Below are positions 12,479 through 57,428 of a stretch of DNA of 64,000 bases, piece by piece (within the stretch, counting starts at the first letter, position 1; each line of letters opens with the position of its first letter). Position numbers and translations under genes: made by a program. The notes below the pieces were generated by a model. It saw nothing but the letters and a program-made list of their open reading frames with translations. It had not been told where the DNA came from and did no database searches. The DNA is from an uncultured Verrucomicrobiae bacterium. GTDB taxonomy: Bacteria; Verrucomicrobiota; Verrucomicrobiia; Limisphaerales; UBA11358. Location of the stretch: assembly GCA_963806905.1 (NCBI GenBank), contig CAWEAA010000006.1, forward strand, positions 13,640-77,639, in the 5' to 3' direction.

Positions 12479-13621
12479 TCATCCGGCCAAAATTCTCCGC
12501 GCCGCCTTCACCAGCGCCTCCACTTCCGCCGGCGTGCCAATCGTGATCCGCAGGTAATTTTTCACTTCTGGAAAACTGAACCAGCGGACGAGGATTTTCT
12601 GTTCGCGCAATTTGTGCTGCCATTCGTGCGCGGCGAAGCGCGGCGGTCGCGCGAGAATGAAATTCGTCCGGCTCGGAAAAACCCGGAAACCGAGCTTCGT
12701 CAATTCGCGGGCCAGCCACTCGCGCGTGGTGATGATCTTTTTGAAATTCGCGCGGTAATACTTCAAATCGCCCAGCGCCACTTCCGCCGCGATCTGGCCG
12801 AGGCCGTTCACGTTGTAGCTGTCGCGAATCTTGTGCAGCGCAGCGATGAGTTCGGGGTGCCCGACAAAATAGCCGACGCGCTGGAAGCACAGCGAATACG
12901 CCTTGGAAAACGTCCGCGCCACCAGCACATGCGGATATTTCAACGCCAGCTTCAGCGCGTTTTCCTCCGCGAAATCCACATAAGCCTCGTCGAGAATGAC
13001 GACGCCCTTCTGCGCCACACAAAGCTTTTCCAGTTCCGAGGTTTTGTAACCGTGCCCACTCGGCGCGTTGGGTGTTGTGACATAAATCAGCGCGGCGTCA
13101 AATCTCCAAACTCCGCTCCGTTTCAATTCGGCCAGGCTTGGCAAACTGAAATCCGGTTTGAGCGGCACCGGATTTTTTGCTGCGCCATGTATGTCCGCCA
13201 GCACCGGATAGAGCGAATAGCTCGGGAGGAAATATTGGATAATTTGGTAGGGACGCCTCGCCGAGGCGTCCGCGGACACGCGAGGCCGCGTGTCCCTACC
13301 CGAAATCGGCTCTACAAACGCTCGCGTGGCCAGCGCCAGCAATTCATCCGAGCCGTTGCCCACGACGAGGTTGTCCGCGTGGCAGCCGTGCAGCTTCGCC
13401 AGTTTTTCGCGCAACACCTGCGCCGTCGGATTCGGATACAGCCGCAACCGCCCGTCCACCGCCGCCTTGACCGCCGCCAGCACTTTCGGCGACGGCGGAT
13501 ACGGATTCTCGTTCGTGTTGAGCTTGATCAACCCCTTGATTTTCGGCTGCTCGCCATAGAGGTAAGGGTGCAACTCGCTTACCAGCGGGCGGATAAAATT
13601 TTTCAAGCTGGTCTTGTTCAT
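12479..13621 (-). CDS. hisC: Histidinol-phosphate aminotransferase
   Basis: ORF is open to 13738; the ATG at 13621 gives MNKTSLKNF. Motifs LNTNENPYPPSP and TFSKAYSL (PLP lysine). Contains an in-frame palindromic insert at 13246-13300. Confidence 0.88.
   Translation of the reverse strand: MNKTSLKNFIRPLVSELHPYLYGEQPKIKGLIKLNTNENPYPPSPKVLAAVKAAVDGRLRLYPNPTAQVLREKLAKLHGCHADNLVVGNGSDELLALATRAFVEPISGRDTRPRVSADASARRPYQIIQYFLPSYSLYPVLADIHGAAKNPVPLKPDFSLPSLAELKRSGVWRFDAALIYVTTPNAPSGHGYKTSELEKLCVAQKGVVILDEAYVDFAEENALKLALKYPHVLVARTFSKAYSLCFQRVGYFVGHPELIAALHKIRDSYNVNGLGQIAAEVALGDLKYYRANFKKIITTREWLARELTKLGFRVFPSRTNFILARPPRFAAHEWQHKLREQKILVRWFSFPEVKNYLRITIGTPAEVEALVKAARRILAG
13246..13300. repeat. GTAGGG...CCCTAC two-hairpin palindromic element, in frame in hisC
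   Basis: Sequence is ggtaggg-[ggacgcctcg c cgaggcgtcc]-gcg-[gacacgcg aggc cgcgtgtc]-cctacc. Translated GRDTRPRVSADASARRPYQ. Confidence 0.85.
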
Positions 13622-13788
13622 CTCAAGGGAACAACGTGGACTCTCGACTGCGAAAGCAAATGAATTACCATGCGCACAGGATAAACACATTCGCCGGAAT
13701 GAAAAGATTTTCAGCGCAGACAATCGTTCGCAATGCATCTTCTATCGCCGGAAAACGCAGTTGACAATGGTAACATAAATGCTACTAT

Positions 13789-19398: not shown

Positions 19399-20772
19399 CT
19401 AACCTGACGAAGCGACCATCTCCAAAATCAGAGGCGTGGCTTTTCCGGGTTTCGCGGAAATTTCAAAAGCGGCCTTCAGGCGGGCGATGGCTGCTTTGGC
19501 CTGATTTGAATCAGCGGCGTGAACGCGGCAAAGTGTCGCGGGTTTTTCCACCCGCTCGCCGGGCTTGGCGATTTGATCAATGCCCACGTCATAATTGATG
19601 ACCGATTCTTTGGTGAGCCGGCCGCCACCCAAATCGCGAATGACTTCGCCGATGAGCCGCGCGTCGCATTTGGAAATGTAACCGGATTTTTCCGCTTTCA
19701 ATTCAACCACGACCGGGGCAGTGGAATCGAGCGCGAGTTTTTTGTTGAACGCCCTCAGATCCGCGCCCTGAGCAACGAGCATTTCGTCCCACTTTTTTCG
19801 CGGGGAGCCGGAGTTCAGACAATTCCAGGCCTGTTGGCGTGCGGCGGCGAGTGATTTCGATTTGCGGGTTTGAACGAGCAGATGCGCGGCGCAGTCGAGG
19901 ACAAGCGTGCGGAGGTCGGATATTTGCCTCTCACCCGACCTTCGGCCACCCTCTCCCCGCCCAGCGGGGAGAGGGCTAGGGCGAGGGGCCTCAAGCACCG
20001 CCACACTTTCCTTCACTTCCAGCCAGTTGCCGGCGGCGCGGCCCAGCGGCGTGTTCATGTCCGTCAAAATCGCGCGGGTGTTCACGCCGCACTCGTTGCC
20101 GAGCGCGACCATGGCCCCGGCAAGTTTGCGGGCATCGGCCCTGGTTGGCATGAACGCGGCGCAACCGAATTTGACGTCGAGCACCAACGCGTCGAGACTT
20201 TCGGCGAGCTTTTTGGAAAGGATGGACGCGGTGATGAGAGGGATGCTCGGCACGGTGCCGGAAGCGTCGCGGAGCGCGTAGATTTTTTTGTCCGCCGGGA
20301 CCATGCGCTCGGTCTGGCCGCAAATGACGCAGCCAACTTTCTGGACTTGCGCTACGATCTTTTCGGCGGGGAGAAGTGTTTTAAAGCCGGGGATGGAATC
20401 GAGTTTGTCGAGTGTGCCGCCGGTGATGCCAAGGCCGCGGCCGGAAATCATCGGCACGCGGAAGCCGAGGCAGGCGAGCAGCGGCGCAAGCGGGAGCGAA
20501 ACCTTGTCACCGATGCCGCCGGTGGAATGTTTGTCCACCAGCGGCCGTTTGTCCTTTGGAAATTTCAATACGTCGCCGGAATCGCGCATGGCGAGCGTGA
20601 GCGCGGTGGTTTCGGCGGTGTCGAGTCCGCGAAAGTAAATGGCCATGAGCATCGCGGCCATCTGATAGTCGGGGATTTTTCCGGTGGTGAATTCGCGGAT
20701 AAAACTTTGAATTTGTCCGCGTGCGAGGGTTTTCCCTTCGCGCTTGTTTTCAATTAGCGAAAGGAAGTTCAC
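19399..20772 (-). CDS. deoA: Thymidine/pyrimidine-nucleoside phosphorylase
   Basis: 457 aa with DKHSTGGIGDKVSL and GRGLGITGGTLDKL motifs. Contains an in-frame palindromic insert of about 20 codons. Confidence 0.88.
   Translation of the reverse strand: MNFLSLIENKREGKTLARGQIQSFIREFTTGKIPDYQMAAMLMAIYFRGLDTAETTALTLAMRDSGDVLKFPKDKRPLVDKHSTGGIGDKVSLPLAPLLACLGFRVPMISGRGLGITGGTLDKLDSIPGFKTLLPAEKIVAQVQKVGCVICGQTERMVPADKKIYALRDASGTVPSIPLITASILSKKLAESLDALVLDVKFGCAAFMPTRADARKLAGAMVALGNECGVNTRAILTDMNTPLGRAAGNWLEVKESVAVLEAPRPSPLPAGRGEGGRRSGERQISDLRTLVLDCAAHLLVQTRKSKSLAAARQQAWNCLNSGSPRKKWDEMLVAQGADLRAFNKKLALDSTAPVVVELKAEKSGYISKCDARLIGEVIRDLGGGRLTKESVINYDVGIDQIAKPGERVEKPATLCRVHAADSNQAKAAIARLKAAFEISAKPGKATPLILEMVASSG
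19927..19988. repeat. GC-rich palindromic element in frame in deoA
   Basis: Core hairpin ctctccccgc-cca-gcggggagag (10-bp stem) with outer arms cctctcaccc / gggcgagggg. Translated RPSPLPAGRGEGGRRSGER. Confidence 0.8.
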
Positions 20773-30145: not shown

Positions 30146-30223
30146 CGTAGCGGCTTTTGCCAGAAAGCCGCAAGCTCTCTGGCTTGTCAGAACAAGTTTC
30201 CGGCGGTCGGCCGACCGCCGCTA
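30146..30223. repeat. GTAGCGGC...GCCGCTAC composite palindromic element (intergenic copy)
   Basis: Outer arms gtagcggc / gccgctac enclose the hairpins gcggcttt-tgccag-aaagccgc and cttgt-caga-acaag and the perfect palindrome ggcggtcggccgaccgcc. Confidence 0.8.
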
Positions 30224-30227
30224 CGAA

Positions 30228-38187: not shown

Positions 38188-38748
38188 TTGTGCTGGCCGC
38201 AAAGTTGGGCATGTTTGAAACCGCGCATTCACATCATTGGCGGTCCCGGCAGCGGCAAGTCTTATATTACCGCGAAACTTGCGGAGCGTTTCGGCGTTCC
38301 TGCCCACGACCTCGATGATCTCTTTTGGGATCGCGCGGCTCTTGGTTACGGCATTCGCGCCAATGCCGCGGATCGCGATCGGCAGCTTGCAACCATCGTT
38401 TCCAAAGATGGTTGGATCATTGAGAGTGTTTATTACCAGTGGCTGGCCCCAAGCTTTGTCGCGGCAGACGTTGTCATCGTACTGACACCTTCGGTCTGGA
38501 CTCGACACTGGCGGGTGGTCAGACGTTTTATTTTACGCAGACTCGGAACAATTCCATCCAAACACGAGTCACTCGCCGATCTCTGGCGCTTACTTCGTTG
38601 GAGTCATGCTTACGACACGGACAACCTTGCTCAGGCGCGCAAGTTCGTAACAGAGCGGGGACGTAAGCTTGTTGAGTGCAAAACATTCAGCCATGTGCTA
38701 GCAGCAACCAAAAACCTGACCGTGACTAAACCGCTTTCTTCGTTCTAA
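38188..38748 (+). CDS. P-loop NTPase (adenylate-kinase/FlaR-like)
   Basis: Walker A IIGGPGSGKS. There is no in-frame ATG after the HIT stop, so I chose the TTG at 38188 or 38215; the start is uncertain. Confidence 0.65.
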   Translation: MCWPQSWACLKPRIHIIGGPGSGKSYITAKLAERFGVPAHDLDDLFWDRAALGYGIRANAADRDRQLATIVSKDGWIIESVYYQWLAPSFVAADVVIVLTPSVWTRHWRVVRRFILRRLGTIPSKHESLADLWRLLRWSHAYDTDNLAQARKFVTERGRKLVECKTFSHVLAATKNLTVTKPLSSF

Positions 38749-40102
38749 GAATTTTTTGTAACACCTGGCCTAGCCGCTTGATGCCTTCGCGGATGTCATT
38801 CTCGCTCGCGCTGCCGAAGCTGATGCGCATTTCGTTGACCGGTTTTGCACGCGACGGATCGTCGGCGTAGCAAAGTTCGCCCGGCACGTAGAGCACGTCG
38901 TTTTTCAACGCCGTCTGGAAAACTTTTGATTTCACGCCTGTCGAAATGTTTTTCGGCAAGCGCGCCCAGAAATAAAGTCCGCCTGCCGGCTCCCACCATT
39001 CGACGGATGGCGGGAAATGTGTTTCAAGTGCCAGCTTCATCACGCGCGCTTTGTGCGCGTAACGCTTTCGCAGCCGCGCGACCTGTTTTTTGTAAGCACC
39101 CGACGCCAGTACGCGAACAAAAAGCTGCTGCAACAAATTCGCCGTGCCGAAATCGTGATTGCCCTTGATATGCCGTATGGCCGTGAACAGCGGTTCCGGC
39201 AGGACGCCGTAACCCACCCGCGCGCCGGTCGCAAACGGCTTGGTGAAAGTGCCCGCGTAAATTACGCGCCCCGCCGCACCGGGAACCGCGAGGGTCGAAG
39301 GTGGCATGGCAGGGACGCGCTGCTGCGCGTCCAGGCTGACCGGCAGGCCAGCCCTACCGGGAAAGTACAATTCGCGATAGGCTGCGTCTTCGAGCAGATA
39401 AATGGGATGTCCCGCCGCGCGTTCGAATTTTCTCAGCAATTTCAGAAGGCCGCGCTTTTTCTCAAAGCTGGTTGTGACGCCGGTCGGATTTTGGAAATAG
39501 CTGACGAGGTAAAACATTTTGACCCGGCGCAAATCCCCGGAACGTTTGAGCGATTGCAGGACCTTTTCGAGATGCATCAGATCCAGTCCGTTGCGTTCAA
39601 GGCGAATGCCGCGCGCACGCAGGCCGCAGCTTTGCAGGATGCTGAGATAAACGAAATAGGTCGGGTCTTCGACGAGCACGATGTCATCTTCGTCGCACAA
39701 GGCCTCGGCGGTCATGTAAAGCAGTTGCTGCGAACCGCTGGTGATGAGCAGGCGTTCGGGTGAATAATTTTCGGGAGGGACGGCGTGCCGCCGTCCCTGA
39801 TTTTTGGGACGCCGACACGGCGTCCCTCCCCAATCAAGTTTCTGGAGATGCTCCGCCGTCAGCCGGCGCAGTTCAGGGTCCCCGGCGGTTGAACCGTATT
39901 GCAACGCGGGCCGGCCGGTTTTAAGCGAACGCAGGATGTGATTCAGTGCCGCTCGGGTTTCAGCGACGGGCAACGAAGGATTGTCAGTGAAGCCGGCGGC
40001 CAGCGAAATGAGCCTGGCCCGCGCCAGCGCCGCCTGCATGAGCCACGAGATGGGCGATTCGCCGGTGCGCTGACCCATTTGGGACAAGCCGGAGTTTCTC
40101 AT
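38726..40102 (-). CDS. PLP-dependent aminotransferase (class I/II)
   Basis: About 458 aa. The ATG at 40102 is preferred over 40114, which lies inside a repeat. Aminotransferase fold blocks are present. Two in-frame palindromic inserts. Confidence 0.8.
   Translation of the reverse strand: MRNSGLSQMGQRTGESPISWLMQAALARARLISLAAGFTDNPSLPVAETRAALNHILRSLKTGRPALQYGSTAGDPELRRLTAEHLQKLDWGGTPCRRPKNQGRRHAVPPENYSPERLLITSGSQQLLYMTAEALCDEDDIVLVEDPTYFVYLSILQSCGLRARGIRLERNGLDLMHLEKVLQSLKRSGDLRRVKMFYLVSYFQNPTGVTTSFEKKRGLLKLLRKFERAAGHPIYLLEDAAYRELYFPGRAGLPVSLDAQQRVPAMPPSTLAVPGAAGRVIYAGTFTKPFATGARVGYGVLPEPLFTAIRHIKGNHDFGTANLLQQLFVRVLASGAYKKQVARLRKRYAHKARVMKLALETHFPPSVEWWEPAGGLYFWARLPKNISTGVKSKVFQTALKNDVLYVPGELCYADDPSRAKPVNEMRISFGSASENDIREGIKRLGQVLQKILRTKKAV
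39308..39358. repeat. GTAGGG...CCCTAC-family element in frame in the aminotransferase (copy 1)
   Basis: The reverse complement is ggtagggctggcctgccggtcagcctggacgcgcagcagcgcgtccctgcc (51 nt). Translated GRAGLPVSLDAQQRVPA. Confidence 0.85.
39773..39831. repeat. Related two-hairpin GC-rich element in frame in the aminotransferase (copy 2)
   Basis: Sequence is gggaggg-[gggacggcg tgc cgccgtccc]-tgattttt-[gggacgcc gaca cggcgtccc]-tcccc. Translated GGTPCRRPKNQGRRHAVPP. Confidence 0.85.
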
Positions 40103-40108
40103 TCGGTT

Positions 40109-40200
40109 AAACATTCAACATTCAACGCCGAACGTCGAACATTCAATTTATTTTGCAGCGCACATTCGATGTTGAATGTTGAGCGTTGAATGTTCGGTGT
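40109..40200. repeat. aacattc-heptad hairpin repeat (copy 2)
   Basis: Left arm is aaacattcaacattcaacgccgaacgtcgaacattcaat and right arm is cattcgatgttgaatgttgagcgttgaatgttcgg. 15-nt loop. Confidence 0.88.
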
Positions 40201-44272: not shown

Positions 44273-44791
44273 ATGAACAATCAACTCTTCCAACTGTCCA
44301 TTGCAACCCGCGCCGGCCAATTCATCGCACGCTACTCCGCCAAAGGACTGGCCGAACTGAAATTCCCGTCGGGTGGTAGGGCCGACCTACTGGTCGGCCA
44401 GGACGCGCGGCAGCGCGTCCCTACCAATAAAGTCCCTGCCCAAATCCTCCGCTGGCATCGGGCGACGGCGGCTGGATTGAAAAGTTCCCTGGCCGGGCGC
44501 AAACCAAAAAATTTGCCGCCGCTCGATTTGGCCGGAACTGAATTTCGGAAACGCGTCTGGAACGCGCTGCGGAAAATTTCCACTGGCCGGACTAAAAGCT
44601 ACGGCGAAATCGCGCAGGCGATTGGCAAGCCCAAGGCCGTTCGCGCTGTGGGCGGTGCGTGCGGGGCGAACCCGGTTCCAATCTTTGTGCCGTGCCACCG
44701 TGTCCTTGCGGCGAACAAAAAACTCGGTGGTTTCTCCGGCGGATTGGATTGGAAACGCAGCCTGCTCAAACGCGAGGGAATTGTATTTTAA
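44273..44791 (+). CDS. ogt: Methylated-DNA-protein-cysteine methyltransferase
   Basis: 172 aa with the active site PCHRVL and the SYGEIAQAIG helix. A 17-codon palindromic insert lies in the N-terminal domain. Confidence 0.88.
   Translation: MNNQLFQLSIATRAGQFIARYSAKGLAELKFPSGGRADLLVGQDARQRVPTNKVPAQILRWHRATAAGLKSSLAGRKPKNLPPLDLAGTEFRKRVWNALRKISTGRTKSYGEIAQAIGKPKAVRAVGGACGANPVPIFVPCHRVLAANKKLGGFSGGLDWKRSLLKREGIVF
44375..44425. repeat. GTAGGG...CCCTAC two-hairpin element in frame in ogt (archetype)
   Basis: Sequence is ggtaggg-[ggccgacc tact ggtcggcc]-a-[ggacgcgc ggca gcgcgtcc]-ctacc, exactly 51 nt. Translated GRADLLVGQDARQRVPT. Confidence 0.9.
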
Positions 44792-50353: not shown

Positions 50354-52960
50354 ATGAGTGGCACCAAAATGACCCCGTCCGACATCCCGAAATGTTCGCA
50401 GTGCGGCACGCCGTTGCCGGCGGGCGCGCTCGCCGGGCTTTGTCCCGCGTGCCTGTTGAAACAGGGCGCGGCCGACGAAACCGCCACGGGAGGACAGGCG
50501 CCACCATTCAACCCGCCGCCCCTTGCCGATCTCGCCGCGAAATTTCCCCAGCTCGAAATCCTGGAACTCATTGGCAAAGGCGGCATGGGCGCGGTTTATC
50601 GGGCACGCCAGAAGCAATTGGACCGGATCGTCGCCCTGAAAATCCTGCCCCCCGGCATTGGCGACGATCCCGCGTTTGCCGAACGCTTCACCCGCGAGGC
50701 TAGGGCGCTGGCGAAGCTCAATCATCCCGGCATCGTGACGTTGTATGAGTTCGGCAAAGCCGACGGGTTGTATTTCTTCCTCATGGAATTCGTAGACGGC
50801 GTGAACCTGCGGCAACTGCTTCATGCCGGGCGCATTTCACCGCGCGAGGCGCTGGCCATCGTGCCGCAGATTTGCGACGCGCTCCAATTTGCGCACGATC
50901 AGGGCATCGTCCACCGTGACATCAAACCGGAGAATATTTTGCTCGACCGCCGCGGCCGCGTGAAGGTGGCGGATTTCGGGCTGGCCAAGATTGTAGCGGC
51001 GGTCTGTGACCGCCAGGATTCTGTCGGGGAAGAACAGCGACGGTCGCAGACCGCCGCTACAGGGGAACTCACCGCTGCCGGCAAGGTCATGGGCACGCCG
51101 AACTACATGGCGCCGGAACAGGTGGAACATCCCGACGAAGTGGACAGCCGCGCGGACATTTACGCGCTGGGCGTGGTATTTTACCAGATGCTCACCGGCG
51201 AACTGCCGGGCAAAAAAATCGAACCGCCATCGTCCAAAGTGCAAATTGACGTTCGCTTGGATGAAGTCGTGCTGCGCGCTTTGGAAAAGAAACCCGAATT
51301 ACGCTACCAGCAGGCCAGCGAAGTGAAGACGATGGTGGAGACTATCGTGGCGAACAATCCCAGTCCGATTGCGCCTCCCGTTCAATCTCAACCTTCCACT
51401 CAAACCGTGAACATCATCAAATCGTTTTTGCGCTGGGCGGTCATGTTTGCCGGTGTGACCGCTTGTGCGGCCCTCGCCGTGTTTGCCATCCTGTTCCTTC
51501 TCAAAACGCAAATCATACTCGGACCTTCGGATTCCGATGTGGCAAGCGCCGGCGCAAACTGGATTCCGGACGCGAAAGGTGGAGGCTCCGTGTCGGTTGA
51601 TTTTAACGACCCGGCGACCAAGGGCGGTTATGATTTCGTGCTCTACAACACCAGCAACTTCGTCGCCGGTGTGGAGAATTACGCCGTCTGGCGTTGTCCA
51701 ATTTTTTCCGTCGGCCCCGCCGCTGATGGAGCGAGGCCCATCGCCCTTTCTTTTGCCTACAAGCTCGCGGATCCCGTGGCCGCCGGGAATAACTTGCGTC
51801 TCCAGTTGCGCTTCTGGGATTCCAGCGGCACCAATTTCATGGGGGAACGAAACATTCGTGTAGGTGCCCACACAGGCGATTCGGCCATGACCAGCCACAG
51901 AACGTTGACGATTAACGGCATCACGGCTCCGCTGAATGCCCGGACGATTGATATTGCCATCTACGCCAATGCAAATTCTGACGAACCCTGGGTTTCGGGC
52001 ACCGGACGGTTTGCCAACATTTCCGTCACAACCACGGCGCATTCTTTGCTTTTCAAAGCTAGCGTCGTTGCGGCTGCTTTGATCGGTATTCTCGTTTTGA
52101 TCATGCTGCTGATTCTCTTTTGGCGTCGGAGCACGCCGGCCCTTCCATCCAGTCCGGTTGCACCTCCTGCTCGATCTCAACCTTCCACCCAAACCATGAA
52201 TACAAACATCATCAAATCAATTTGGCGCGGGGCGGTCATGTTTGTCGGTGTCGCCGCTTGCGCGGCCCTCGCTGCATTTGCCATTCTGTTTCTTTTCAAA
52301 CATCAAATGATGCTCGGACCGGCCGATTCCGGCCCATCCAGTGGTGGCGCAAATTGGTTGAGTGGCGCCTATGGTGCCAGCACGGTGTCCATTGATTCCA
52401 GCGATCCCGCCACCAAAGGCGGTTATGATTTAGTGATCAGCAACACGGTTGCCGGCAAAGAAAACAGGTCGGACTGGCGTAGCCTGCCTTTTACGCTCGG
52501 CCCCGCCGCCGGAGGAGCAAGACCAATCACTTTTTCCTTCGCTTATAAACTTATGGATGCTGTGTCGAACGGAAATAATATCCATGTTCAACTGCGTTTC
52601 TTCGATTCGACTGGCACGAAGTTTATATCTGAGAAGGTCATTCCGGTCGGCGCTCAGACGGGCGACTCGACAATGACAAGCTATAAAACATTCACGATGG
52701 GCCGCATCATTGCTCCCCGGAAAGCCCGGACTGCCGATGTTTGGATTGATGCCAATATTTTTAAACCGTGGGTTTCGGGCACAGCGCAATTTGCTGACAT
52801 TTCCGTCACGGCCGCGCCGCCTTCCTTGCTCTTCAAGGCTGGTGTCTTCGCGGCTGTCTTGGCCGCCATTTACGCTTTGATTATGCTACTGGTCCACTTT
52901 TGGCGTCGGAGTGCGCCTTTGCCAGCCGCAGGTGGCCCAACTTTGGAGCAATTGGTTTGA
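50354..52960 (+). CDS. Ser/Thr protein kinase with two tandem TM-ectodomain-TM sensor modules
   Basis: 868 aa. N-terminal Cys pairs (CSQCG..CPACL) and kinase motifs GKGGMGAVY, HRDIKPEN, DFG and APE. Four predicted TM helices flank two paralogous domains of about 190 aa. Confidence 0.88.
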   Translation: MSGTKMTPSDIPKCSQCGTPLPAGALAGLCPACLLKQGAADETATGGQAPPFNPPPLADLAAKFPQLEILELIGKGGMGAVYRARQKQLDRIVALKILPPGIGDDPAFAERFTREARALAKLNHPGIVTLYEFGKADGLYFFLMEFVDGVNLRQLLHAGRISPREALAIVPQICDALQFAHDQGIVHRDIKPENILLDRRGRVKVADFGLAKIVAAVCDRQDSVGEEQRRSQTAATGELTAAGKVMGTPNYMAPEQVEHPDEVDSRADIYALGVVFYQMLTGELPGKKIEPPSSKVQIDVRLDEVVLRALEKKPELRYQQASEVKTMVETIVANNPSPIAPPVQSQPSTQTVNIIKSFLRWAVMFAGVTACAALAVFAILFLLKTQIILGPSDSDVASAGANWIPDAKGGGSVSVDFNDPATKGGYDFVLYNTSNFVAGVENYAVWRCPIFSVGPAADGARPIALSFAYKLADPVAAGNNLRLQLRFWDSSGTNFMGERNIRVGAHTGDSAMTSHRTLTINGITAPLNARTIDIAIYANANSDEPWVSGTGRFANISVTTTAHSLLFKASVVAAALIGILVLIMLLILFWRRSTPALPSSPVAPPARSQPSTQTMNTNIIKSIWRGAVMFVGVAACAALAAFAILFLFKHQMMLGPADSGPSSGGANWLSGAYGASTVSIDSSDPATKGGYDLVISNTVAGKENRSDWRSLPFTLGPAAGGARPITFSFAYKLMDAVSNGNNIHVQLRFFDSTGTKFISEKVIPVGAQTGDSTMTSYKTFTMGRIIAPRKARTADVWIDANIFKPWVSGTAQFADISVTAAPPSLLFKAGVFAAVLAAIYALIMLLVHFWRRSAPLPAAGGPTLEQLV
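50993..51060. repeat. GTAGCGGC...GCCGCTAC element in frame in the kinase activation loop
   Basis: Arms gtagcggcggtctgtgaccg / cggtcgcagaccgccgctac (19/20 complementary) enclose 28 nt. Translated VAAVCDRQDSVGEEQRRSQTAAT, between the DFG and APE motifs. Confidence 0.85.
51362..52939 (+). repeat. Intragenic tandem duplication (2 x 789 nt) in the kinase gene
   Basis: SPIAPPVQSQPSTQT... (from 51362) and SPVAPPARSQPSTQT... (from 52151) align over about 263 codons, roughly 55-65% identical by eye. Confidence 0.85.
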
Positions 52961-56162: not shown

Positions 56163-57428
56163 TTGTTGGTGAGCTTTTTCGTTCAACGCAGTGAGTTGCG
56201 TGACCTTTATGACAAGGTCGCCGCCGGCGAACGCATTTCCGAGGCTGACGCGCTCCGGCTGTTTGAATCCAGGGATTTGAACGCCGTCGGCGCCATCGCG
56301 GACCTGGCGCGTCAGAAAAAAGTCGGCAACCGCGCCAGCTACATCATCAATCGCTACGTCAACTACTCGAATTATTGCATCCTGTCGTGCCAGTTCTGCT
56401 CATTCGCGCGCAAGAAACGCGACGCCGACGGCTTCGAGTTCACCACCGATCAGATCGTGCAAAAAGCGCGCGAGGCGCTGGCTATCGGCATCACCGAACT
56501 GCACATCGTCGGCGGATTGCACCCATCACTGCCGTTCAGTTATTACACCGACATGTTGAAAGCGCTGCGCGCACTTAACGATGAGGTGGTGGGGAGAGCA
56601 TCCCCGCGAGCCGGCTCGTCAGTAGCCTCGCCCCACCAAGACGGCGGGCAAGGGACTGCCCGCCCTACCCAGCGGTTACACCTCAAATGCTTCACCGCGA
56701 TTGAAATCCTCCATCTCGCCTGGCTCGCGAAAAAATCCGTCGAGCAGACGTTGACTGAATTGAAAGCGGCCGGACTCGATTCACTCACCGGTGGCGGCGC
56801 GGAAATCTTCCGCAAGGAAGTCCGCTCGGCCATCGCCAGGGGCAAGGAATCCGCCGAGGAATATCTGGACGTGCATCGCACGTGGCATCGCATGGGCGGA
56901 CGCAGCACCTGCACGATGCTTTACGGCCATGTCGAAACGCTGGCCGACCGCGTGGACCATCTGCGGCTGTTACGCGCGTTGCAGGACGAAACGCACGGCT
57001 TCGTCGGCTTCGTGCCGCTGGCGTATCAGCCGGAGAACAACGATATTCCGGTCGAAAAACCGCCGACGGGCTTCGATTCGCTGCGCACCATTGCCGTCAG
57101 CCGCGTCTATCTCGACAACTTCGACCACATCACCGCGTATTGGGTCGGCCTGGGCCTGAAACTGGCACAGGTGGCATTGAGCTACGGCGCGGACGATATG
57201 CACGGCACCATCATCGAGGAACACATCTTCCACATGGCCGGCGCGACCTCGCCGCAATTGCAGACCGAGGCGGCCATGCTCAAGGCCATCCGCGAAGCCG
57301 GGCGCACGCCGGTTCAGCGCAACACGTTCTACGAGCCGATAAAAGTGCAGGAAAATCTGCCTGTGCCAGACGCGCGTGAAAATTCTGCACGGTCGAAAGT
57401 GCTCGAAGAAAACCTGGCAACAGCATGA
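56163..57428 (+). CDS. Radical SAM menaquinone (futalosine pathway) enzyme, MqnE/MqnC family
   Basis: 421 aa with a TTG/GTG start at 56163-56169. CxxxCxxC cluster (CILSCQFCSF), next to mqnA. Carries an in-frame GC-rich insert of about 30 codons. Confidence 0.8.
   Translation: MLVSFFVQRSELRDLYDKVAAGERISEADALRLFESRDLNAVGAIADLARQKKVGNRASYIINRYVNYSNYCILSCQFCSFARKKRDADGFEFTTDQIVQKAREALAIGITELHIVGGLHPSLPFSYYTDMLKALRALNDEVVGRASPRAGSSVASPHQDGGQGTARPTQRLHLKCFTAIEILHLAWLAKKSVEQTLTELKAAGLDSLTGGGAEIFRKEVRSAIARGKESAEEYLDVHRTWHRMGGRSTCTMLYGHVETLADRVDHLRLLRALQDETHGFVGFVPLAYQPENNDIPVEKPPTGFDSLRTIAVSRVYLDNFDHITAYWVGLGLKLAQVALSYGADDMHGTIIEEHIFHMAGATSPQLQTEAAMLKAIREAGRTPVQRNTFYEPIKVQENLPVPDARENSARSKVLEENLATA
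56586..56670. repeat. Composite GC-rich palindromic insert in frame in the mqn radical SAM gene
   Basis: Arms ggtgggg...ccccacc enclose the palindrome cgagccggctcg, then the hairpin ggcgggca-aggga-c-tgcccgcc, ending in ctaccc. Translated VVGRASPRAGSSVASPHQDGGQGTARPTQ. Confidence 0.8.

Follow-up and report, generated by a model that had tools for sequence, protein, structure and literature searches.

In-frame GTAG-tagged palindromic doublets within ogt and other genes of a Limisphaerales bacterium

The window analysed in this work, a 64-kb stretch of DNA, belongs to a soil or peat Verrucomicrobiota of the order Limisphaerales ('subdivision 3') and includes an ogt gene, whose coding sequence carries in frame a 51-nt palindromic element at positions 44375-44425 (GGTAGGGCCGACCTACTGGTCGGCCAGGACGCGCGGCAGCGCGTCCCTACC). 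This element has the layout GGTAGG, hairpin, hairpin, CCTACC, and it encodes the peptide GRADLLVGQDARQRVPT. A hairpin scan located one stem-loop at 44380-44399 and another at 44401-44420, each with 8 perfectly matched base pairs and a loop of 4 nt, the ends of the element form a perfect 7-bp inverted repeat, and the outer GGTAG and CTACC are able to pair. Folded as single-stranded DNA, the 51-mer gave the outer stem plus the two hairpins at -23.9 kcal/mol, against a mean of -10.45 (sd 2.17) for shuffled 51-mers (z = -6.2), and 0 of 200 shuffled sequences folded as well. The sequence, the hairpin scan and the fold thus confirmed the two-hairpin anatomy proposed in the initial annotation, and the open reading frame (ORF) and its Pfam match (Table 1) confirmed the in-frame position within ogt. 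The proposed outer stem does pair, but its partition had to be amended because the third G of GGTAGGG is common to the outer stem and the first hairpin.

Each half of the element is a GTAG-tagged repetitive extragenic palindromic sequence (REP), and the two unlike REPs form a tail-to-tail heterodimer. The GTAG-tagged REP superfamily was defined by Di Nocera, De Gregorio and Rocco (2013, BMC Genomics, PMC3733652), who described head-to-head and tail-to-tail pairs and both homo- and heterodimers. REPs of this kind are 20-40 bp stem-loops with a stem of 5-13 bp, and the halves found here measure 25 nt, with perfect stems of 8 or 9 bp and loops of 3 or 4 nt. The GTAG/GYRG tag is expected outside the stem of its own REP, and GGTAGG precedes the stem in the halves of ogt and hisC and in a single REP of mqnE; the tag variants GCAG, GGAG and GTGG are also present among related elements. 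REPs also often pair in opposite orientation, and here they are joined tail to tail with spacers of 1-3 nt (1 nt in ogt), so that the tags point outward and can pair together. The pattern GTAGGG-N30-50-CCCTAC occurs 2 times in the window, versus 0.00 expected. A scan of the whole window with Rfam 15 at gathering scores gave zero matches, and no tRNA or tmRNA was found in it.

The element is dispersed. When four soil or sediment metagenomes were compared with the ogt region, many contigs matched only 44374-44426, with unrelated flanks on both sides; the runs holding the sequence come from soil, sediment and wetland. When metagenome contigs were scanned for exact matches to the pattern of the right-hand REP (GGTAGGGACGCGC-N3-5-GCGCGTCC), at least 120 contigs were retrieved, which together with the several copies in 64 kb indicates a dispersed multi-copy family. 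The element thus has many other genomic copies, whose lack the initial annotation had named as a refutation. Among the matches listed, this REP was very often followed by 1 base and GGC(C/T)GACC-ggca-GGTC(G/A)GCC-CTACC, that is, by the same unlike partner as in ogt. These matches include 41 doublets, 29 of them exactly 51 nt long, and the 51-nt doublet with the ogt type of partner hairpin was represented by 28 distinct variants, the window copy and 27 besides. The same unlike pair, at a fixed 51 nt, therefore recurs in unrelated contexts, as expected of two inverted REPs copied as a unit. Single REP halves with one GTAG tag were also common, alone and in direct arrays. When the window was pooled with 80 related genome loci, to a total of 1.2 Mb, GGTAG ranked first among the 5-mers that immediately precede perfect hairpins, and GTAG was found in the upstream flank 60 times versus 5 for its reverse complement CTAC. 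The GTAG families seen were GGTAGGG plus stem, GTAGCGCAGGCG..., GTAGCCGCCGAC-gtga-... and GTAGCGGCGGTC.... No target-site duplication was visible at the window copies.

The sequence of the stems varies while pairing is kept. Among the matches listed, the partner hairpin of the 28 variants shows three pairs changed on both sides (19 double-changed cells vs 5.4 in shuffles), and 97.8% of its cells are paired, vs 27-39% for partners slid against each other; the search itself fixed the first hairpin, which therefore does not vary in this set. Compensated double changes were also found in the stems at the orthologous Ogt site, namely GGACGCGC/GCGCGTCC, GGCTGCGC/GCGCAGCC and GGCGGCGC/GCGCCGCC. Compensated stems fit three readings: a transposase that reads the hairpin, replacement or conversion by members of the family, and selection in place.

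In the Ogt protein, the REP-coded residues 35-51 lie between a strand (residues 25-30) and a helix (residues 56-73). The AlphaFold model has a mean predicted local distance difference test score (pLDDT) of 80.9 and falls below 50 only at residues 35-50, which are without secondary structure, placing the insert in a predicted disordered loop. Some insert between 'FP' and 'VPxQILRWHR' is present in 48 of 48 close Ogt orthologues, and distant verrucomicrobial orthologues have ordinary linkers of 10-14 residues at the site, e.g. FPSKQNPAATREPENVPTKIQAWHR. The closest Ogt proteins and loci all come from Verrucomicrobiota metagenome-assembled genomes (MAGs) labelled Limisphaerales, 'subdivision 3' or Pedosphaera. 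Contigs with Limisphaerales-type Ogt (L003, L006, L008, L016, L028, L055, L067 and others) are filed under the MAG titles 'uncultured Bifidobacteriaceae', 'Klebsiella pneumoniae', 'Akkermansia muciniphila' or 'Candidatus Acidiferrales', labels that look wrong for them.

The Ogt loop has at least five occupants across lineages: the 51-nt doublet as in the window; VGSARCADRTSQRDVPT, which is another GGTAGGG doublet; VGRASPRA..., of the GTGG-tagged family also present in mqnE of the window; a long GTAGGAGACGACGTGAGGAGTCTC inverted repeat encoding ...RRRRGNESQ...RDSSRRLL; and EALVAPKRSEGG. The gene upstream of ogt ends in ...YLHNH and the stop codon both in the window and in close relatives (loci L001, L002 and L046), so local gene order is kept and the differences in the loop arose within a syntenic locus. 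The longer element that encodes ...RRRRGNESQ...RDSSRRLL was seen in the loop of L004, L018, L019, L025 and L038 and has terminal inverted repeats of about 24 nt, (G/T)(T/G)(A/C)AGGAGACGACGTGAGGAGTCTC...GAGACTCCTCACGTCGTCTCCT(A/G)C. It folds as a single long hairpin and is GTAG-ended in 4 of 5 loci (L019 has TGCAGG ... CCTGC). Nesting was seen in L208 (201-752, protein P0008), where a hairpin element (CCGCCCTCCGCAG...CTACGGAGGACGG, peptide ...ALRSTATEDG...) sits in frame within the Ogt REP doublet, in the 4-nt loop of one REP hairpin. A similar element (PVLRSTIAEGG), known from the protein sequence alone, lies in the second half of the Ogt doublet of P0007.

The coding share and the reading frame of the doublet were studied in the metagenome contigs, a copy being considered deep within a gene if the stop-free span around it was 200 codons or longer and extended 50 codons or more to each side of the copy. 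Among the matches listed, 18 of the 41 doublets lay deep within long ORFs, and the flanking peptides differed in 18 of 18, so each of the 18 has a host gene of its own. Of these copies, 16 have a length of 51 nt, and every one of the 16 is read as GGT-AGG-G, giving GR...PT peptides (GRDALPRVQADRQVGPT in 11 copies and, in the opposite orientation, GRADLPVSPDARQRVPT in 5). The frame GG-TAG-GG contains a stop codon and, as expected, was never seen in intragenic copies. No stop codon interrupts the frame G-GTA-GGG in either orientation, yet these 51-nt copies did not use it; under equal use of the two open frames, a 16:0 distribution has a probability of (1/2)^16, about 1.5e-5. The peptide of this alternative frame (VGTRCRASRPTGRSALP) contains Cys, has a net charge of +4 and is without acidic residues, and the bias is also explained if that peptide is less tolerated.

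Further copies were found in the window (Table 1). In HisC, a 17-residue alignment gap with respect to the solved structure 3HDO coincides with the insert. RNA evidence was available as metatranscriptome contigs of related organisms, 85-95% alike. In one of these hisC contigs, 24 nt replace window positions 13226-13306 (81 nt), a difference of 57 nt or 19 codons, and the normal FVEPG...PSYS motif is restored. Splicing of the hisC element was considered and rejected, since the joint left by the skipping holds 24 other letters between its sides; the contig is therefore read as an orthologue without the insert. Another related hisC RNA contig retained a different REP at the insert site, where DNA carry-over is possible. 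No sign of a removal of the insert from RNA or protein was seen in these contigs.

The class I/II aminotransferase gene contains two inserts, and the protein shows alignment gaps at both of them against the solved structure 1X0M. The earlier proposal that copy 1 and the ogt copy are read in the same frame was borne out: both belong to the same 51-nt family, of which copy 1, with 2 differences from the metagenomic variant GGTAGGGACGCGCTGCTGCGCGTCCAGGCTGACCGGCAGGTCAGCCCTACC, is a slightly decayed representative. Copies of the same architecture had been announced for hisC and twice for the aminotransferase; their coordinates and in-frame positions held, but the ends of aminotransferase copy 2 show that it is not GTAG-tagged, its spacer is 11 nt, and it represents a related family with a different tag. 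Among orthologues of the aminotransferase, L127 (72% identity) has an identical copy-2 peptide and a different family at loop 1, L002 has a dimer of the GTAGCGGCGGTC family at loop 1, and in L167 (73% identity, ~2700-2830) the copy-1 loop holds the same 51-nt doublet inverted (GRDALPRVQADRQVGPT vs GRAGLPVSLDAQQRVPA in the window). The opposite orientation in L167 may be due either to inversion between the terminal inverted tags or to independent insertion.

The composite element noted earlier in an mqn radical SAM gene was confirmed at 56588-56669, the best solved homologue being MqnE. The protein of the window matched this solved enzyme (6XI9) in two stretches skipping residues 138-170, with about 30 extra residues, and the single REP of mqnE is also present in L028 and L066. 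The expectation that these segments are lineage-specific insertions in surface loops was therefore supported by the low pLDDT of the Ogt insert, the gaps of HisC, the aminotransferase and MqnE against solved homologues, the short linkers of distant Ogt proteins and the related hisC lacking 57 nt.

Table 1. Genes and REP-type elements of the window, with positions counted from its first nucleotide.
Feature	Position	Strand	In frame	Sequence or annotation
ogt (methylated-DNA--protein-cysteine methyltransferase)	44273-44791	+		PF01035 (O6-methylguanine-DNA methyltransferase DNA-binding domain) 5e-35
Left REP of ogt doublet	44375-44399			GGTAGG + GGCCGACC-tact-GGTCGGCC
Right REP of ogt doublet	44401-44425	read on -		GGTAGG + GGACGCGC-tgcc-GCGCGTCC
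hisC (histidinol-phosphate aminotransferase)	12479-13738	-		PF00155 6.5e-49; PDB 3HDO 2.2e-67
55-nt REP doublet in hisC	13246-13300		yes	GGTAGG + GGACGCCTC-gcc-GAGGCGTCC, 2-nt spacer (gc), GGACACGCG-aggc-CGCGTGTCC + CTACC
Class I/II aminotransferase (aminoadipate/kynurenine aminotransferase-like), two inserts	38726-40114	-		PF00155; PDB 1X0M 8e-43
51-nt REP doublet, aminotransferase copy 1	39308-39358		yes	ogt-copy family; GGCAGGG tag, one stem mismatch; encodes GRAGLPVSLDAQQRVPA
59-nt hairpin doublet, aminotransferase copy 2	39773-39831		yes	GGGAGGG...CCCTCCCC ends, 11-nt spacer; encodes GGTPCRRPKNQGRRHAVPP
mqnE-like radical SAM gene (aminodeoxyfutalosine synthase)	56163-57428	+		PF04055, PF19288; PDB 6XI9 2.8e-69
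50-nt imperfect palindrome in mqnE	56588-56637		yes	GGTGGGG...CCCCACC ends (GTGG tag); VGRASPRA family; encodes VGRASPRAGSSVASPH
Single GTAG REP in mqnE	56643-56669	-	yes	GGTAGG + GCGGGCA-gtccct-TGCCCGCC; adjoins the 56588-56637 element
Single REP, second GTAG family, in Ser/Thr protein kinase gene	50993-51014	+		GTAGC + GGCGGTC-tgt-GACCGCC (GTAGCGGCGGTC-tgt-GACCGCC); ORF 50354-52960(+)
GTAGC-family REP pair, tail to tail, intergenic	30147-30224			29-nt spacer with its own small hairpin; between xerC-like integrase (tyrosine recombinase) gene and purC

Six of the 7 GTAG-type REP sites of the window are intragenic, the pair between the xerC-like gene and purC being the only clearly extragenic one found. 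The REP of the Ser/Thr protein kinase gene lies in frame directly after the DFG motif; its peptide, ...KIVAAVCDRQ..., opens an activation-loop region of unusual length. At 19949-19975, a hairpin with a perfect stem of 12 bp (CCCTCTCCCCGC-cca-GCGGGGAGAGGG) was observed in frame in a thymidine/pyrimidine-nucleoside phosphorylase gene (ORF 19399-20772, -), where it encodes ...PRPSPLPAGRGEGGRR...; it has no GTAG tag and is therefore assigned to another family of hairpin repeats. Hairpins of a similar 'GEG/PSP' type stand beside REPs in L144 and L147, and the aminotransferase loop of L127 holds them too.

The possible transposase of the element was also sought. With E. coli RayT and the RAYT-like protein of locus L019 as queries, tblastn detected no REP-associated tyrosine transposase (RAYT) gene in the 64-kb window, the only matches being in L019, L162 and L169, so it is through other metagenomic contigs with the same REP that the element can be linked to a transposase. 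In L162 and L169, arrays of GGTAGGGACGCGCTGC(C/T)GCGCGTCC, including doublets that hold this REP, bracket a RAYT-like ORF on both sides. Such a layout, in which REPs of one kind stand on either side of a RAYT gene, is known as a REPtron, and it was found in related metagenomic contigs only. The L169 ORF matched the NCBIfam model NF047646 ('REP-associated tyrosine transposase') with an E value of 1.9e-16 and 60.3 bits, the curated cut-off being 80, and its homologue in L019 reached 81.9 bits. Against the solved E. coli TnpA-REP (4ER8) the L169 ORF gave an E value of 1.5e-5, with the HUH motif (pdHlHlf vs peHmHci) and the region of the catalytic Tyr (lYvqeNPV vs dYiyiNPV) aligned. A Pfam scan of the L019 ORF did not recognise it; this ORF is flanked by inverted GGAGGG/GGAAGG-tagged hairpins. 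In comparison with the gene of L169 (668-1171), the RAYT-like gene of L162 (~190-760) has about 31 additional residues, encoded by a cluster of REPs read in frame as GTA-GGG, and the L169 gene ends at a stop codon supplied by the TAG of the GGTAGGG tag next to it.

All these results make it probable that the doublet is a pair of GTAG-superfamily REPs forming one copied unit, moved in trans by a RAYT, and that its genic copies are filtered and tolerated passengers. According to this model, the 51-nt doublet would be copied as one non-autonomous unit, similar to a REPIN (REP doublet forming a hairpin) or to a very small miniature inverted-repeat transposable element (MITE), and a RAYT of the HUH/Y1 family, the product of a gene at another genomic site, would recognise the hairpin while the DNA is single-stranded and cut beside the GTAG tag. 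Such mobility is suggested by the known biochemistry of the RAYT family and by the REPtron arrangement. Selection would then filter the genic insertions, so that the survivors would keep the frame, avoid the TAG frame and mostly use the frame giving a hydrophilic peptide rich in Gly, Pro, Arg and Asp, within loops able to tolerate some 17-19 extra disordered residues. Existing REPs or permissive loops may afterwards attract or retain more elements. Orthologues differ in the presence or absence of the insert, in its orientation and in the family at the same loop, which is indirect evidence of mobilisation. The inserts are presumably translated and neutral for the host, and it is most likely that the copies of ogt, hisC, the aminotransferase and mqnE serve no host function and are passengers that these genes tolerate.

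Several points weigh against this interpretation. There is no RAYT gene in the window, the L169 RAYT-like ORF is under the NCBIfam cut-off, and its match to Pfam Y1_Tnp is marginal (E 0.055). The one empty site, that of hisC, gives no target-site signature because its flanks have diverged. In addition, the 16:0 use of two open frames exceeds what avoidance of the stop codon explains, the predominance of intragenic sites in the window is unlike the mostly extragenic location of classical REPs, and the fully compensated stem changes in the Ogt loop could suggest a structure selected in place instead of a passive passenger.

This last point leads to the possibility that host selection keeps the hairpins in genes as functional nucleic-acid structures, either of RNA (ribosome pausing, mRNA half-life, RNase sites) or of DNA (binding of gyrase or nucleoid proteins). 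The compensated double substitutions at the orthologous Ogt site, the excess of double-changed and paired cells in the partner hairpin, and the persistence of some inserts across orthologues with 72-77% protein identity speak for it. However, the doublet is present in dozens of unrelated genes as well as in intergenic DNA and flanks a RAYT-like gene, the same loop holds different families or nothing across lineages, and zero Rfam families were matched; compensated stem variants are also known in REP subfamilies (PMC3733652) and could arise via replacement or conversion. We consider this explanation unlikely. Slightly less probable still is that the peptide (GRDALPRVQADRQVGPT or GRADLPVSPDARQRVPT) is a selected protein module, such as a tag, a cleavage site or an interaction motif, the DNA palindrome being secondary. 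The use of one frame by 16 of 16 independent intragenic 51-nt copies among the matches listed, with a second frame open, and the similar hydrophilic Gly/Pro/Arg/Asp-rich peptides of both orientations would be expected of such a module, but the peptide is predicted to be disordered, its sequence differs between orientations, unrelated peptides of other families occupy the same loops, more than half of the copies sampled among the matches listed are not deep in long ORFs, and a less tolerated alternative peptide accounts for the bias as well.

The perfect 7-bp inverted repeat at the ends and the lack of a RAYT within the window would agree with a MITE moved by a conventional DDE insertion sequence transposase through GGTAGGG/CCCTACC terminal inverted repeats, the arrays flanking RAYT genes being coincidental. 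That origin seems as improbable as the protein module, because terminal inverted repeats leave unexplained the common one-tag REP halves, found alone and in direct arrays, because a target-site duplication is not visible at the copies examined, and because RAYT-like genes are bracketed by the REP on both sides, like the described REPtrons (PMC3733652). Finally, the window comes from a MAG, and chimeric joins are known to arise at repeats, so a wrong joining of the repeat into genes during assembly or binning was considered. It is scarcely credible: many independent JGI, ENA and NCBI records encode Ogt with the same insert, a contig of a sediment metagenome links the element to downstream ogt sequence, and all inserts keep the reading frame. 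The artefact that the initial annotation had named as a reason for withdrawing its claim is thus contradicted by independent assemblies and protein records.

Beyond the probable RAYT-moved doublet with tolerated genic copies, a further proposal can be made, although only tentatively and with more doubt than confidence. In Limisphaerales, coding sequence might be a main habitat of the doublet instead of a chance location, with about half of its copies in genes, and its sequence might have been shaped so that, in either orientation, one frame yields an open, hydrophilic and disordered peptide of 17 residues (GR...PT), the frame used by practically every intragenic copy; Ogt and the two aminotransferase loops would then be recurrent landing pads where, in the course of evolution, different REP families insert, invert, nest and exchange. 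If true, this would be a bacterial non-autonomous transposon adapted at the level of the element to life inside proteins, and it would steadily supply housekeeping enzymes with loops of varying length. In any case, the 16:0 frame use and the re-use of loops offer a testable case of selection filtering genic insertion, or of an element adapting to it. For annotation, stretches of 17-30 residues in Limisphaerales proteins (GRDALPRV..., GRADLPV..., VGRASPRA..., VGSARCA...) should be regarded as repeat-derived and not as conserved motifs; in MAG-derived databases they make proteins look more divergent and add gaps to alignments. Since there are many independent in-frame insertions and the host homologues have been solved, they also provide a ready-made map of insertion-tolerant loops.

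The element had been likened to the Rickettsia palindromic elements (RPEs), whose hosts are obligate intracellular Alphaproteobacteria and of which RPE-1 is about 100-150 bp long, without a GTAG tag. RPEs, said to have been described by Ogata and co-workers in 2000 and 2002, are reportedly palindromic repeats in frame in housekeeping genes, where the resulting surface peptide is tolerated. As an analogy the comparison is apt, the in-frame behaviour being common to both, but there is no sequence relation, and membership was rejected for an element of 51 nt that is GTAG-tagged, G+C-rich and located in Verrucomicrobiota. RPE-4 and RPE-6 have been filed in the CGTC-tagged superfamily, without a dedicated transposase (PMC3733652).

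With the REPINs (Bertels and Rainey 2011, PMC3116915) the doublet shares an inverted REP pair as conserved copied unit, a population of variants and a REP-flanked RAYT. However, classical REPINs are extragenic and pair like REPs, so that the whole unit folds into one long hairpin, whereas the ogt doublet has unlike halves, tail to tail with a 1-nt spacer. As its stems differ (GCCGACC vs GACGCGC), only a three-way structure forms, and the minimum-energy fold consists of two hairpins closed by the tag stem; the doublet is consequently REPIN-like in behaviour, not a typical REPIN. The REPs and bacterial interspersed mosaic elements of E. coli, with their TnpA-REP (RayT, 4ER8), are likewise GTAG-tagged hairpins in inverted pairs, and the RAYT-like ORF aligns with this transposase over HUH and Tyr. 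In contrast, E. coli REPs are extragenic, with bulged stems and longer linkers, and the RAYT-like proteins are distant from E. coli RayT (25% identity over 128 residues by tblastn).

The nearest described relatives are the GTAG REPs of Opitutus terrae (PMC3733652), and the suggestion of the initial annotation that this element type was undescribed does not stand: the kind was already known, and only the family and the order Limisphaerales are new. In that work GTAG REPs were linked to RAYT transposases, most REPs were intergenic, and REP subfamilies with alternative complementary stems were reported. O. terrae, also of the Verrucomicrobia, had dimers with partners only 1-2 bp apart, and in-frame intragenic dimers were most numerous there, with some genes hit twice and often in repair genes. 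Within the literature that could be searched, this was the only study to combine Verrucomicrobia, REP and RAYT, which covers Opitutus with other family sequences and not Limisphaerales. The element of ogt, which shows every testable defining feature of a GTAG REP, resembles O. terrae GTAG-17 to GTAG-20 in the 6-9 bp stem, the GTAG tag at one end, the opposite-orientation pairs and the heterodimers, and also in alternative complementary stems, several inserts per gene, DNA-repair hosts, a REP-flanked RAYT and the same phylum. It differs in the sequences of stem and loop, in the peptides (GTGVPPV, VGPALAAG and GRDARAT in O. terrae are unrelated to GRDALPRV here) and in the order, Opitutales there and Limisphaerales here. 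In contrast to the mostly intergenic REPs of that study, 18 of the 41 doublets among the matches listed and 6 of the 7 window sites lie within genes, and that study mentions neither a strict use of one frame nor loops that are occupied repeatedly. The advance over the published record is incremental: a large part of the doublets lies within genes, a single frame is used and the same loops are occupied again. The work also extends RAYT/REP systems to an abundant uncultured lineage of soil and peat.

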